A DNA stretch of 64,000 nucleotides. Origin: an uncultured Christensenella sp. (GTDB taxonomy: Bacteria > Bacillota > Clostridia > Christensenellales > UBA3700). Shown in pieces: positions 37,986 to 56,068 of the stretch (the stretch's first letter is position 1; every line of letters starts with the position of its first letter). The notes under the pieces are model-generated. The model was not told the DNA's origin, did not search any database, and saw only the letters and a program-made list of their open reading frames with translations. The stretch lies in NCBI GenBank assembly GCA_910583995.1, contig CAJTYW010000003.1:80492-144491 (forward strand), written 5' to 3'. The translations under genes and the position numbers were made by a program.

Positions 37986-39119
37986 ATGCTTTACACACAA
38001 TTTGAAGATAATTTTGCTAAATGTAAAAATGTAAGAATTGAAAATAATATTGCCGAAGAAGTATTATCCGACATAAAAAAATTGACTAAAGCCGGAGTGA
38101 TTAATGTCATTTATACTGAAAATAAAATTGACCTTGCAAGTGAAATTGAAGTATTATTAAATCGTGCAGGATACATTGCAAAAATAACTTTATTAAGTAA
38201 TGATATTTTTGTGGACGAACTGCAAGATAATTGCGAAGGAATAGTATTATTGGGTAGTAGTTTATCAAAATTGATTTGCGGAAATAAATGCTTGATTGTA
38301 GCAGACGAATTGCATTTGTTTGAAATTTTACATAAAGATTATTATTCCGTCATTGTGGACGAAAAAACTATAAAAAACAGCAGTGCAGGCGAACTTGCAG
38401 GTGGTTACGGAATTTTAATGGCGAAGCTAATTGCTTGCTTTGATTATAAGCTTTCTTGTATCGCTTATAGCAAAAATGATAATTTGAGCATAATATCTGA
38501 GATTGAAGAAGTAATAATAAGTATGTTTTTAAAGACATATACTTTTAATTTTGATGAAAGTTTTTCAAGAGATTTAGCTATGACTATTATAAGTGTAGGA
38601 ATGCTTGAGAGTATGCTTAATAAAATAGATATACTTAGCGGCTATGACATTTGCAGTTTGCTTGTCAAAAAAGTGAGCAAAAGCAATAATGGAAAAAATG
38701 AATTTGCTATGCTAGTTGGTTGGTATATTTTAAATGTTGTAAAAAGCCTTATCAAAAATGAGTCAAAAGATTTGTTTTTGCCTAGCGATATTATTGCTGA
38801 CTTGGAGTTTGTAAGCGGTAAGGCGGAAATTAGTAAATTGCAATTGCTTAATTTGATTGATAATATTGTGGCAAGTGAGTATACAAGATTATTGTTTATA
38901 AGCTTTGAGTATAAAAACGAGATAGAAAAAAGTATTAATAAAATATATACGCCTTGTCAAAACGCAATAAAAAATTTCAGACGCATATATTACGATGCGG
39001 GACTAGAGATAGCAGCAAGTATAACTATGAAAGACTTGTCCGAATGTGTGCTAAGAAGCGTAATATTTAATCCGCAATATAGCTTTTTAAAAATGTACAG
39101 GATACTGGGTATAGCCTAA
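37986..39119 (+). CDS. Hypothetical protein
   Basis: 377-aa ORF with RBS GGGGGTG. No family recognised. Confidence 0.55.
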   Translation: MLYTQFEDNFAKCKNVRIENNIAEEVLSDIKKLTKAGVINVIYTENKIDLASEIEVLLNRAGYIAKITLLSNDIFVDELQDNCEGIVLLGSSLSKLICGNKCLIVADELHLFEILHKDYYSVIVDEKTIKNSSAGELAGGYGILMAKLIACFDYKLSCIAYSKNDNLSIISEIEEVIISMFLKTYTFNFDESFSRDLAMTIISVGMLESMLNKIDILSGYDICSLLVKKVSKSNNGKNEFAMLVGWYILNVVKSLIKNESKDLFLPSDIIADLEFVSGKAEISKLQLLNLIDNIVASEYTRLLFISFEYKNEIEKSINKIYTPCQNAIKNFRRIYYDAGLEIAASITMKDLSECVLRSVIFNPQYSFLKMYRILGIA

Positions 39120-39150
39120 AAGCCACTAATTAGTGGCTTTTATTTTTTTT
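39118..39150. terminator. Bidirectional terminator
   Basis: Stem AAAAGCCACTA / TAGTGGCTTTT followed by a T-run. Confidence 0.85.
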
Positions 39151-39153
39151 ATA

Positions 39154-52555: not shown

Positions 52556-53263
52556 CTAATTGATTTCTCTTCTTAATTGTTTAAGTTTTATATATGTGTA
52601 AATCTTTTTTATCTGTTCGGGAGTAAGCTTTGTTGTTGTAATCTTTTGACCCGGCGTGTAAGTAGTAATATCGCTGTTTTTTATTTCGGATAATCTACTT
52701 GTTATATCGGTTATATTATGTACGCTATTTATGTTGTCGCCTGTCTCTTCAGTTGCAAGTAAGCTTTCGCTTGTTTCCAGTAAATCGCTATCTGCCATTA
52801 TATCCGTTTGTGTAACTGTATTGTTTTGACTGATATTGCTATAATATGCTTGATTTTGCTTAACTGAAAAATCAATATTATGTATTGTTGAGATTGTTTC
52901 CGCTTGTCTTAAACTTGTTGGCATAATTTTTGAGTAATTGACTTGCATATCATTTAGTTTGTTAAACAAAAACTCACTTTCAAATTCCCCACACAAGATA
53001 TAAACTTGTAAATAATTGTTTTTGGCACATAATTCTATTGTATCTAATGCTTGCGGAATATCCAGTGCAACTTTTTTTCTGCTACCATTGTAATTATGTA
53101 TTATTTCATTGTTTACAAAAGGCAACTTATTGTGTTTTTGCTCAATATAGTTATAAATGTGTATTTCAAGATTATCACTTGGAATATTTTCAATCAAGTG
53201 GGAATAACTCTGAGTATTCAGTCTTGTTGTGTTTAAATCAATAGTCAAAAGATAATTGTGCAA
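52556..53263 (-). CDS. Hypothetical protein, co-oriented and abutting ogg
   Basis: 235-aa ORF starting 3 nt after the ogg stop. No family recognised. Confidence 0.55.
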   Translation of the reverse strand: MHNYLLTIDLNTTRLNTQSYSHLIENIPSDNLEIHIYNYIEQKHNKLPFVNNEIIHNYNGSRKKVALDIPQALDTIELCAKNNYLQVYILCGEFESEFLFNKLNDMQVNYSKIMPTSLRQAETISTIHNIDFSVKQNQAYYSNISQNNTVTQTDIMADSDLLETSESLLATEETGDNINSVHNITDITSRLSEIKNSDITTYTPGQKITTTKLTPEQIKKIYTYIKLKQLRREIN

Positions 53264-53265
53264 AA

Positions 53266-54066
53266 TTACTCCTTATTTTCTTCCCGTTTGTTATAAAACA
53301 GATATTGCTGTGCGTATCCTGCGTTTTCTCCGTACAATTTAATAAGATTTTCTCTCATAATTTTAGGAGAAGGGTATTCATTAAATAAATCTTGATATAT
53401 TTTTTTTACCCAAGTATCTACAGGAAATACGTCCATTTTGTGATATCCAAATAATAGTATGCAGTCTGCAACTTTAGGTCCTACGCCCACAAGATTGTCG
53501 CATAAATATTTATTTGCTTCATATCCGTTTACTTGATTAGGAAAAGATAAATTTATTTGATTTTCAGCAAGAGTTTTAATAGACTTTTCAAGATAAGATG
53601 CTCTATAACCGCAACCCATTGCTTTAAAGTCACTTTCCTTAATAGCTGATAGTTCCGCTAAAGTAGGAAATTTCCCATTAGGTGCTATTCTGTTTAAAAT
53701 ACCTTGTATCCTTGGAATATTATTGTTTGCGGAAATTATAAAACTAATTATTGTTTCCAAAATATCTTGTCTTAAAATTCTTATTCCGTAGCCGTATTTA
53801 ATTGCACTATCCATCATAGGCAAACCTTTTAGTTCTTCCTTTATTTTGGAATAATCGCAATTTAAATCAAAATAGTTTTCAAAATAATCTCTATCTTCGT
53901 TTTCAATAATTATTTCGTCTTTATTTTGATAAAGTACAGCTTTTTTATCCAAAGAATACACTTCGGCATAAGTATCATTTATAGTGAATCGAAAAAGTTG
54001 TCCGCACTCTAATGTTTGTTTAATATTAAAATCTTTTGCTTCAGTTATTATAGTATTATTTTGCAT
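53266..54066 (-). CDS. ogg: 8-oxoguanine DNA glycosylase (Ogg, HhH-GPD superfamily)
   Basis: LECGQLFRF N-terminal motif, HhH-GPD GVGPKVADCILLFGYHKMDVFPVDTWV. Start taken at MQNN (the tracked start at 54108 is 14 codons upstream). Confidence 0.8.
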   Translation of the reverse strand: MQNNTIITEAKDFNIKQTLECGQLFRFTINDTYAEVYSLDKKAVLYQNKDEIIIENEDRDYFENYFDLNCDYSKIKEELKGLPMMDSAIKYGYGIRILRQDILETIISFIISANNNIPRIQGILNRIAPNGKFPTLAELSAIKESDFKAMGCGYRASYLEKSIKTLAENQINLSFPNQVNGYEANKYLCDNLVGVGPKVADCILLFGYHKMDVFPVDTWVKKIYQDLFNEYPSPKIMRENLIKLYGENAGYAQQYLFYNKREENKE

Positions 54067-54143
54067 AATATTTTTACCTTTTGTGTCGAAATTTTGTATG
54101 TAGTACAAAAAAGAACAATTAATATTGTCAAAATTTGTACTTT

Positions 54144-54437
54144 TTTATAATATCGGAAGTTATCGCAAAGCGGGGCGAAGCCACATTTTGCAGTAACTGA
54201 CGATTTCTCAAACTAGAAGTGCTTGCGACAGCAAGTATATTGTGTTAGCAATATGAAATTTTAATGGCAATTAAAATTCACTTCTTTTAGTTTATATTAT
54301 CGGAAGCTGTAGTCAAGCGACACGAAGTGGCATTTGACATCAGCGAGTGTTAATTCAAATTAGAAGTACTTGCGACAGCAAGTTTATTGTGTTAGCAATA
54401 TGAAATTTTAATGGCAATTAAAATTTACTTCCTATAA
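54144..54437 (+). repeat. Tandem duplication (2 x 147 nt) of a highly structured element; candidate ncRNA or cis-regulatory RNA of unknown class
   Basis: Exact 147-nt register. 3' 71-nt modules are nearly identical. 5' modules are diverged but show compensatory stem changes. G-U pairs favour + strand RNA. Confidence 0.7.
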
Positions 54438-54526
54438 TTTGTATTATATAATATTTACATATTTTTTGCAACAATTGGTTGACAAGTGTTAAAGAAAATG
54501 TTAATTTTAACAAGAGGATAATGAAA

Positions 54527-56068
54527 ATGAGTGAAATGGTTGCTGAAAATAGTGTGAAAGAGAATAAATTAGGAGTTATGCCAATCCCAAAATTGCTGGC
54601 AAAAATGTCTTTGCCGGCTATTTTTTCTATGCTTATAATGTCAATGTATAACATTGTTGACAGTTTATTTATTGCAAAATCAAGTATATATGCTTTGGGA
54701 GCATTGAATCTTGCTTTTCCGTTGCAACAAATTATGCTTGCATTTGCACTTGGCGTTGGTGTAGGTACTAGCACTATAGTTGCAAGAAGGCTTGGCGAGA
54801 AAAATAAAAATCAAGCGGACAAACTTGCTCAAAACGGCTTGAAAATTGCTATTGTTACTACTGTACTTTTTATGATTTTAGGTAGTTTTTTGCCTAATTT
54901 ATTTATGAAAATATTTACTCAAGATAAAACAATTATTACAATGGGTACACAATATTTGACAATTTGTATGGTATGTTGCTTTGGTATGATGATAGAAATT
55001 TTGGTTTCCAAAATTTTGCAAGCAACTGGAAATATGATAATTCCAATGCTTTCTCAATTGTTGGGTGCTGTAATAAATATTATATTTGACCCTATTTTTA
55101 TTTTTGTTTGCGATTTAGGTATTATAGGTGCGGGAATTGCTACGGTAATGGGGCAGATAATCAGTATGATATTCGTTTTGGTTTTGGCATCAAAAAGAAG
55201 ACACGTAATTGATTTAATGTTTAAAATTAAGCATCCTAAAGATATATTAATAAGTCTTAAGTGTTTTAAAGAAATTGTTCGTATAGGTTTGCCTGTATTG
55301 ATTATGAATGCAGTGACAGGTATTATTGTTATAATAATGAATAAAATAATCGGCGGTTACAGCAGTCAAGCTACAAATGCTTTGGGCGTTTATTTTAAAT
55401 TGCAGTCATTTGTATTTATGCCTGTTTTTGGACTTAATCAAGGTGCTTTGCCTATTATGTCTTTCAACTTTGGTGCAAATCAAGAAAAAAGATATAGGCA
55501 AACTTTCTTGCTATCCCTTGCCGTAAGTTTGGTTATTATGGTTATAGGTGTTTTGATTTTCCAATTGTGTCCGGAATGGTTGATTTCATTGTTTGAAAAT
55601 AGCAGTAGTGAAACGCAAATTGCAGAGTATAATGAACTTGTGGCAGTAGGAACAGTGACTTTGCGAGTAATAAGTTGGAGTTTCTTGTTTGCAGCAGTAA
55701 ATATTATTGTTACAACAGGCTATCAATCCATAGGTTACGGAGTGACTTCGCTAATAATGTCACTTTTAAGACAAGTTATATTTATTTTGCCACTTGCAAT
55801 ATTGTTCGGTAAATTTTGGGGGCTTGACATTTTGTGGTGGAGTTATCCTATTTCAGATATACTGGTTATGGTTATATTTACACCTTATTACTTCTTTGCG
55901 TACAAAAAAGCTTTTGCAAAGCGAATAAAAAATAATCAACAATCAAGTGAAGAAATAGCTAATCAAAATAGTGAAGTGATACAAGAAAATGTAGAAAAAC
56001 AGATTGTGGACCAAGGCGAATATGCTTTGCCTGTCGCATCAACTATGGATAATGAAGGTGAAGAATAA
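54527..56068 (+). CDS. MATE-family efflux transporter with acidic C-terminal extension
   Basis: ATG 8 nt after AGAGGA. 12-TM MATE pattern (PAIFSMLIMSMYNIVDSLFI..., GLNQGALPIMSFNFGA). Confidence 0.85.
   Translation: MSEMVAENSVKENKLGVMPIPKLLAKMSLPAIFSMLIMSMYNIVDSLFIAKSSIYALGALNLAFPLQQIMLAFALGVGVGTSTIVARRLGEKNKNQADKLAQNGLKIAIVTTVLFMILGSFLPNLFMKIFTQDKTIITMGTQYLTICMVCCFGMMIEILVSKILQATGNMIIPMLSQLLGAVINIIFDPIFIFVCDLGIIGAGIATVMGQIISMIFVLVLASKRRHVIDLMFKIKHPKDILISLKCFKEIVRIGLPVLIMNAVTGIIVIIMNKIIGGYSSQATNALGVYFKLQSFVFMPVFGLNQGALPIMSFNFGANQEKRYRQTFLLSLAVSLVIMVIGVLIFQLCPEWLISLFENSSSETQIAEYNELVAVGTVTLRVISWSFLFAAVNIIVTTGYQSIGYGVTSLIMSLLRQVIFILPLAILFGKFWGLDILWWSYPISDILVMVIFTPYYFFAYKKAFAKRIKNNQQSSEEIANQNSEVIQENVEKQIVDQGEYALPVASTMDNEGEE

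Follow-up and report, generated by a model that had tools for sequence, protein, structure and literature searches.

A tandem structured element in the ogg-MATE spacer of an uncultured Christensenella sp. probably represents a low-copy, mosaic family of intergenic repeats

The array and its fold

The spacer between ogg and a MATE efflux gene in the window (the whole 64-kb stretch of DNA that was analyzed) is occupied by a tandem array of two structured units. The ogg gene is transcribed divergently from the MATE gene, with the array between them, and Pfam searches confirmed both flanking genes as they had been named in the original prediction. Read 5' to 3', each unit is made up of an irregular hairpin (H), a single-stranded linker and a tight four-way junction (C). 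The features of the locus are as follows:

53266-54066, - strand: ogg, 8-oxoguanine DNA glycosylase (Pfam OGG_N and HhH-GPD; 266-aa gene calls)
54144-54290, + strand: unit 1 (H1-C1), 157 bits by the R1 covariance model
54144-54151, + strand: boundary octamer of unit 1, TTTATAAT
54152-54159, + strand: ATCGGAAG of unit 1
54158-54198, + strand: H1 hairpin
54199-54214, + strand: single-stranded linker of unit 1
54215-54285, + strand: four-way junction C1; the tail of unit 1 is TTTAG
54291-54437, + strand: unit 2 (H2-C2), 172 bits by the R1 covariance model
54291-54298, + strand: boundary octamer of unit 2, TTTATATT
54299-54306, + strand: ATCGGAAG of unit 2
54306-54344, + strand: H2 hairpin
54346-54361, + strand: linker of unit 2
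54362-54432, + strand: four-way junction C2; the tail of unit 2 is TATAA
54427-54454, + strand: junction 28-mer ACTTCCTATAATTTGTATTATATAATAT, resembling Bacillus subtilis dif (22/28)
54438-54445, + strand: third boundary octamer, TTTGTATT, at the right edge of the array
54479-54507, + strand: MATE promoter-like site (TTGACA, 17 nt, TGTTAATTT), 3' of the array
54527-56068, + strand: MATE efflux gene (Pfam MatE, E 1.3e-47)

As originally described, the two units (54144-54290 and 54291-54437) lie head to tail in exact 147-nt register. Their 3' 71 nt (54215-54285 versus 54362-54432) are identical at 67 of 71 positions (94%), their 5' halves share 61% identity, and the unit is AT-rich, with a GC content of 33%. 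Tandem Repeats Finder returned no row for the array, even with a minimum score of 30, since the array has only two copies at 79% identity. The R1 model, run with its filters off, found no additional copy in the 64-kb window besides units 1 and 2; a 23-bit match at 38984-39152, which overlaps the 3' end of a coding ORF, was rejected as noise. Upstream of unit 1, the TTGTCA that had been proposed as part of a promoter-like site is present at 54125. On the far side of the spacer, ogg is adjoined by a 235-aa ORF (52556-53263, - strand) with no Pfam match, and counterparts of 214-300 aa, also with no domain match, are kept beside ogg in all syntenic relatives.

Folding of the + strand gave -44.2 kcal/mol for unit 1 and -37.8 kcal/mol for unit 2 (z of -5.0 and -3.5), a stability that none of 200 shuffles reached. 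In each unit the - strand folds less stably by about 7 kcal/mol because several of the pairs are G-U. The minimum-energy fold of unit 1 is exactly the one that had been drawn, namely a 5' hairpin followed by a four-way junction with the closing helix AGAAGUG/CACUUCU. In unit 2 the three hairpins are unchanged, and the lowest-energy fold closes the entire unit through UUAUCGGAAG paired with CUUCCUAUAA. Junction C has a 7-bp closing helix, hairpins of 5, 8 and 9 bp (the last being the third arm), 4-nt loops and almost no unpaired bases, and the linker between H and C, of about 16 nt, is unpaired.

The compensated pairs reported between window copies 1 and 2 were confirmed, and compensatory change was found to extend across 14 units of the family described below. 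When these units were aligned with MAFFT, 91.6% of the proposed pair positions could pair, compared to 30-50% when the 3' partners were slid, and 11 of the 43 pairs were changed on both sides. Several arrays in this family end in a terminal module that we considered to be a separate element. This was rejected in favor of a compensatorily diverged form of the same four-way junction, in which all four helices have been replaced: the closing helix AGAAGUA/UACUUCU by GUGUCG/CGACAC, AUAUUGC/GCAAUAU by AAAAGC/GCUUUU, and AAAUUUUAAU/AUUAAAAUU by AAAUUUGAG/CUCAAAUUU. Units with the rewritten junction scored 84-114 bits by the covariance model over their full length. Adding them raised the count to 20 of 43 pairs changed on both sides, with 92% of pair positions pairing compared to about 40% (33-49%) in slid controls, in an alignment that was fitted to the model and is thus biased toward structure.

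Thirteen of the 14 units share one G-U pair in H, and further G-U pairs recur. Since such pairs form on one strand only, the selected strand is the strand shown, in agreement with the + strand specificity that had been proposed. This selection is compatible with RNA and single-stranded DNA alike and does not separate them. The fold of the unit is real, specific to one strand and selected for structure, as the original prediction had argued from two copies. Conserved unpaired positions are confined to the initial ATCGGAAG, the linker GTTAATTCAAA and some bases in the internal loops of H; the scarcity of conserved unpaired bases in junction C is evidence against a ligand pocket or the core of a ribozyme.

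Relation to known RNAs and to the MATE gene

The units do not correspond to a described RNA class. Rfam gave no match in the whole 64-kb window at gathering thresholds, and at E<=10 the 511-nt region surrounding the array yielded noise matches to eukaryotic snoRNAs and lncRNAs only. When the arrays of six other loci (L016-L021) were scanned, no Rfam family matched the units, and the sole match was a separate L10_leader. A tRNA cloverleaf has canonical D, anticodon and T arms, and ARAGORN found no tRNA or tmRNA genes in the window. The original view of the element as unclassified was thus upheld, the scan having included ribozymes, sRNAs and riboswitches, among them ykkC, mepA (guanidine-IV), glycine, purine and T-box.

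The position of the array raised the question of MATE control. A cis-acting leader or tandem riboswitch controlling MATE would fit an array that is co-oriented with and upstream of this gene, that contains tandem structured domains, and in which a 5' GGAAG or an internal AGAAG could pair alternatively with a 3' CUUCC. This alternative pairing is lost in the rewritten-junction units, however. MATE orthologs with 74-77% identity were compared, together with their surroundings, in five sister species (L001, L002, L004, L010 and L013), which share with the window the gene order ppx - hypothetical - ogg <-> MATE - (small ORF) - pfl. In all five, the syntenic ogg-MATE spacer measures 165-265 bp and contains no unit.

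The promoter-like site at TTGACA (54479) is present as originally noted, and it is kept in every one of these sister species as part of a conserved block, TGCAAC-N6-TTGACA-N17-TGTTAAnTTT (54466-54507 in the window), which is followed by the ribosome-binding site. This block is likely an extended -10 promoter, and its conserved TGCAAC could be a regulator-binding site. The promoter lies about 20 nt before the ribosome-binding site, and to judge from its conservation, a transcript from it would carry a leader of only ~20 nt. Since the conserved promoter lies between the units and the start codon, the units are not the MATE leader, and the earlier suspicion that the element might not be the MATE leader was correct.

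What is not supported is the idea of a locus-specific regulatory or ligand-sensing RNA tied to MATE: the units are absent from the five sister spacers, module number and order vary among strains with the same MATE protein, and family copies adjoin unrelated genes elsewhere. With no Rfam class in its favor either, control of MATE by a leader or riboswitch is largely refuted and has become extremely improbable. The MATE gene is a downstream neighbor without a functional tie to the units.

Strain variation, dispersal and boundaries of the units

Contigs carrying a MATE protein that is identical to that of the window, or in the same 90% cluster, were used to compare strains. At least three different arrays occupy the ogg-MATE site among conspecific strains. 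The window and L022 have H1-C-H2-C; L007, L008, L023 and L024 have a single unit, H2-C, and lack unit 1; and L028 has H2 alone followed by H1-C (H2-x-H1-C), in which the order of the H modules is reversed. The L028 arrangement is seen in truncated form in L015 and L029-L031. Many contigs end inside the element just upstream of MATE (L009, L015, L024-L027 and L029-L031), so array length in metagenome-assembled genomes (MAGs) is unreliable; runs of N also occur within the arrays of L019 and L020.

The exact 147-nt register and the near-identical 3' halves would be expected from a simple local tandem duplication followed by divergence of the 5' halves, and the original prediction described the 5' halves as diverged in sequence. 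However, H1 and H2 differ by 39% in strains that share the MATE protein, the one- and two-unit strains being identical in it, which excludes in-place divergence after duplication. Copies in another species share 97% identity with the H2 of the window, the H1 outer stem resembles that of the L016 copy, and L028 carries the H modules in the opposite order. H1 and H2 are two pre-existing module alleles, and local duplication, refuted by these family members elsewhere, retains almost no credibility. The identities of the modules point the same way: window H2 is 97% identical to the H of L019 unit 1, from another species, while the corresponding C modules are 82% identical, and within the window the pattern is reversed (C1/C2 94%, H1/H2 61%). 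The tip of H takes discrete forms (CAC-GAA-GUG, CCC-GUA-GGG and GGC-GAA-GCC), and orthologous arrays of two species with an overall identity of 92-93% have exchanged these forms. The discrete, exchanged H forms and the contrasting H and C identities indicate that the family is a mosaic whose modules recombine or convert.

Searches elsewhere revealed the extent of this family. Blastn of the units against the sister-species loci gave weak partial relatives at other sites. The exact 3'-module pattern had no match in a first genome scan and found only the ogg-MATE locus in a metagenome scan, but a relaxed two-hairpin pattern recovered six loci (L016-L021) in three species-representative MAGs. These represent four independent places and, with the window, five independent loci in four species. 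The units there are full-length (147-148 nt) and occur singly or head to tail, with one to at least three units per array:

L019 and the orthologous L017: array between a serine recombinase gene and a gene for a BspA-type LRR protein
L020: array 3' of ftsZ and 5' of a GH3 glycosidase gene
L021 and the orthologous L018: array between convergent genes
L016 (from an uncultured Christensenella sp. MAG), 1212-1489, sense: unit flanked by the L10 leader (RF00557, 53.5 bits) on one side and the rplJ ribosome-binding site on the other

The L016 unit lies within the leader of an essential ribosomal-protein operon, where it is almost certainly transcribed and presumably does not block the operon. The records of these MAGs are titled uncultured Christensenella sp., Christensenellaceae bacterium and Clostridia bacterium, and the host range of the family is a clade of uncultured gut Clostridia, represented by Christensenellaceae-like MAGs. 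Copy number appears low, with two units in the 64 kb of the window and, in one MAG, four pattern matches at three loci on two contigs totaling 739 kb. Two arrays have been retained at orthologous loci of two species at about 92% identity, so movement is not rapid. The structured strand is the G-rich strand at four of the five independent loci, which is not significant. Blastn of the spacer in distant mode gave no match in 72,556 plasmids or 50,697 phages, and four viral scans gave nothing or chance AT hairpins of about 14 bits by the covariance model. Two weak partial matches to the 3' part of the unit (24-25 bits), at L013 851-913 after ppx and L002 9340-9414 before pflA, could be remnants that have decayed or simply AT-rich hairpins, and nothing corresponding to them is present at the equivalent places in the window.

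The L019 locus holds a second variable feature. Two MAGs with 92-93% identity elsewhere carry a 176-bp segment (L019 4028-4203; L017 6707-6882) in opposite orientations, and 35-nt inverted repeats of 91% complementarity bound this segment. Its neighbors on the two sides are the gene of a 203-aa serine recombinase (Pfam Resolvase, L019 2879-3490) and the BspA-type LRR surface-protein gene (L019 4391-6739), and the segment looks like an invertase-driven phase-variable promoter with the repeat array right beside it. The serine recombinase was set aside as a mobilizer of the family, being present at one of five loci and having its own 35-nt inverted repeats around the inverted segment. No transposase or recombinase linked to the family was found among the loci examined.

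The edges of the units are uniform. Every unit starts with TTTATAWT, giving a -10-like TATAAT or TATATT, and the same octamer follows every array, including those of L017-L021. The single unit of L007 is flanked by TTTATATT and TTTGTATT; when the unit and one octamer are removed, the remaining sequence, GTACTTTTTTATATTATATAATATTTACA, aligns with the empty site CTACTTTTTATATTGTATAATATTTACA of L004, the one alignable sister species, in which a single octamer copy is present. From sequence comparison, this pattern would fit either an insertion that duplicated its target or crossing over inside the core. Since all loci have the same octamer, it might instead belong to the element itself or serve as a recombination core. 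In C-type units there are, in addition, short inverted termini, TTATCGGAAG and CTTCCTATAA, which match at 9 of 10 nt. These are missing from the rewritten-junction units, so a classical transposase dependent on terminal inverted repeats is not indicated, and no related insertion sequence (IS) element was seen at any family locus.

The right edge of the array led us to consider site-specific recombination. A dif site is 28 bp long, with XerC and XerD arms around a 6-bp spacer, and the chromosomal dif lies once per replicon at the switch in GC skew. The stretch at 54427-54454 matches B. subtilis dif at 22 of 28 positions, the top match in the window and one never reached in 20 shuffles; the dif string used is present in PMC3025954. 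The GC skew is positive across the entire site without a change of sign, and the ogg-MATE spacer was rejected as a chromosomal dif on these grounds.

A related proposal is that the units are miniature integrative modules that recombine, through a Xer-type (dif-like) or other site-specific system, at ACTTCCTATAA-TTTRTA-TTATCGGAAGC, with repeated integration producing the head-to-tail arrays, by analogy to elements that use dif for their integration. In addition to the dif match, the junction arms form inverted repeats flanking a 6-nt AT-rich spacer, the core octamer is common to all boundaries, and the arrays are indeed head-to-tail. Nevertheless, the skew shows that the site is not at the chromosomal terminus, and there are several family loci per genome. 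A dif-like arm is missing at the left junctions and where rewritten-junction units end, the L004 empty site does not resemble dif in the same register, and the sole nearby recombinase, that of L019, belongs with its own invertible segment. A 147-bp circle is, moreover, a poor recombination substrate. On balance we regard integration of this kind as improbable.

Comparison with known repeats and the most likely origin

The closest analog of the unit family is bcr1, a repeat of the B. cereus group (group A of bcr1-bcr18). It is a transcribed repeat of about 155 bp with TTTAT direct repeats and a distribution that is not conserved; compensatory changes maintain its cruciform-like fold, and its mobility may involve a form of site-specific recombination (PMC3184786, PMC6542083). 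Both repeats are about 150 bp, non-coding, intergenic and dispersed, and both differ in distribution among close relatives. In both, independent, cruciform-like stem-loops have undergone compensatory changes, and the TTTAT of bcr1 is contained within TTTATAWT. Unlike bcr1, the unit family is modular (H and C recombine), forms head-to-tail arrays, combines a hairpin with a four-way junction, is hosted by Clostridia MAGs and has an apparently much lower copy number. The plasmid blastn, which covered reported bcr1-carrying plasmids of the B. cereus group, detected no similarity to bcr1, an indirect comparison in that the bcr1 consensus itself was not the subject.

The modularity is reminiscent of the BOX element of Streptococcus pneumoniae (boxA-boxBn-boxC), in which the number of tandem modules at a given locus varies by strain (PMC3049150). 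BOX is likewise composite, its transcripts are predicted to be extensively folded, and it can be located within transcribed regions (PMC3049150). In contrast, the sequences are unrelated, the modules of the unit family are about 73 nt each rather than 45-59 nt, and each repeated unit here is a complete hairpin plus junction. The terminal inverted repeats of BOX resemble those of an IS element, whereas the inverted termini of the unit family are short and not universal.

Similarities to MITEs (Correia elements, RUP) include small size, AT-richness, an apparently duplicated target sequence, short inverted termini in C-type units and small, non-coding, dispersed copies, in our case at five independent loci in four species. 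The family differs from MITEs in that it has neither long terminal inverted repeats nor terminal inverted repeats matching a related autonomous IS element, its fold is not one long hairpin formed from the termini, and its boundary octamer is constant at all loci. Miniature elements derived from IS200/IS605, and REP sequences, all mobilized as single strands by Y1/HUH transposases, have strand-specific, irregular subterminal hairpins as the units do. Insertion of the IS200/IS605 type beside a fixed, short AT-rich sequence resembling the 3' end of the element would explain both the direct repeat and tandem insertion, but the left and right hairpins of the unit are dissimilar and no Y1 transposase was seen at the family loci. 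REP and BIME sequences are GC-rich palindromes of 20-40 bp with a GTAG or CGTC tag, present in high copy. A unit of 147 nt and 33% GC does not fit them in size, and a GTAG at the foot of the hairpin occurs in H2 and is absent from both H1 and the L021 copy. The unit family is a new family of the general kind of bcr1 and BOX, set apart from both by sequence membership.

The original prediction had named dispersed copies in arbitrary contexts, free of covariation, as the outcome that would speak against a structured RNA. Dispersal was indeed found, but so was covariation, and this could count against a repeat, as strong structural covariation is equally compatible with a functional RNA. The units might accordingly be multi-copy small RNA genes, in which a unit or array is transcribed from the -10-like octamer, the linker UGUUAAUUCAAA pairs with targets or binds a protein, and the spread is secondary. 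The strand-specific fold with its conserved one-strand G-U pairs and strong covariation would suit such genes, as would the conserved, unpaired linker, the TATAAT or TATATT that opens every unit, the two terminators flanking the L021 array, and the L016 copy, which lies in sense in the rplJ 5' UTR and is almost certainly transcribed. However, a consistent -35 box is lacking, as is a clear terminator 3' of C-type units, the four-way junction is almost devoid of conserved unpaired bases, the presence, number and order of units vary among conspecific strains, sister species lack units at this site, and the duplicated boundary octamer indicates insertion. We therefore consider small RNA genes of this type rather unlikely.

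A broader reading, also unlikely but deserving some weight, is that the units constitute structured nucleic acids of a new class with a function of their own. The unit would be either a trans-acting, mobile, multi-copy non-coding RNA that works through its linker, or a miniature element moved as a folded single strand by a junction-recognizing host enzyme (Y1/HUH or Xer-like), with arrays formed in either case by repeated site-specific insertion at TTTATAWT.

The reading that we favor, at a probability of roughly 60%, is that the array belongs to a previously undescribed, low-copy, structured and mosaic family of intergenic repeats that is probably mobile or was formerly so. Its dispersal, insertion polymorphism, modularity, conserved strand-specific fold and lack of a MATE link were all demonstrated above. 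We propose that a unit entered the ogg-MATE spacer in the lineage of the window species, at a TTTATATT target that is now on both sides, and that the array may afterwards have gained, lost and reshuffled modules through recombination. The element would be mobilized in trans, now or formerly, through a single-stranded or otherwise structured intermediate or transcript, and mobilization of this type would account for the selected fold. Any effect on ogg and MATE would be incidental, for example through an outward -10-like box or a structured read-through RNA.

In conclusion, this analysis dispels a false indication of a riboswitch upstream of a MATE transporter and documents a repeat of gut Clostridia in which every helix is kept by compensatory change while the modules shuffle between strains. 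Such repeats break metagenome assemblies, and they can place -10-like boxes and stable RNA structures beside genes. If the units are functional RNAs, they would constitute a new multi-copy RNA family; if the fold is what a mobilizing enzyme recognizes, they would offer a compact model for structure-directed mobility.
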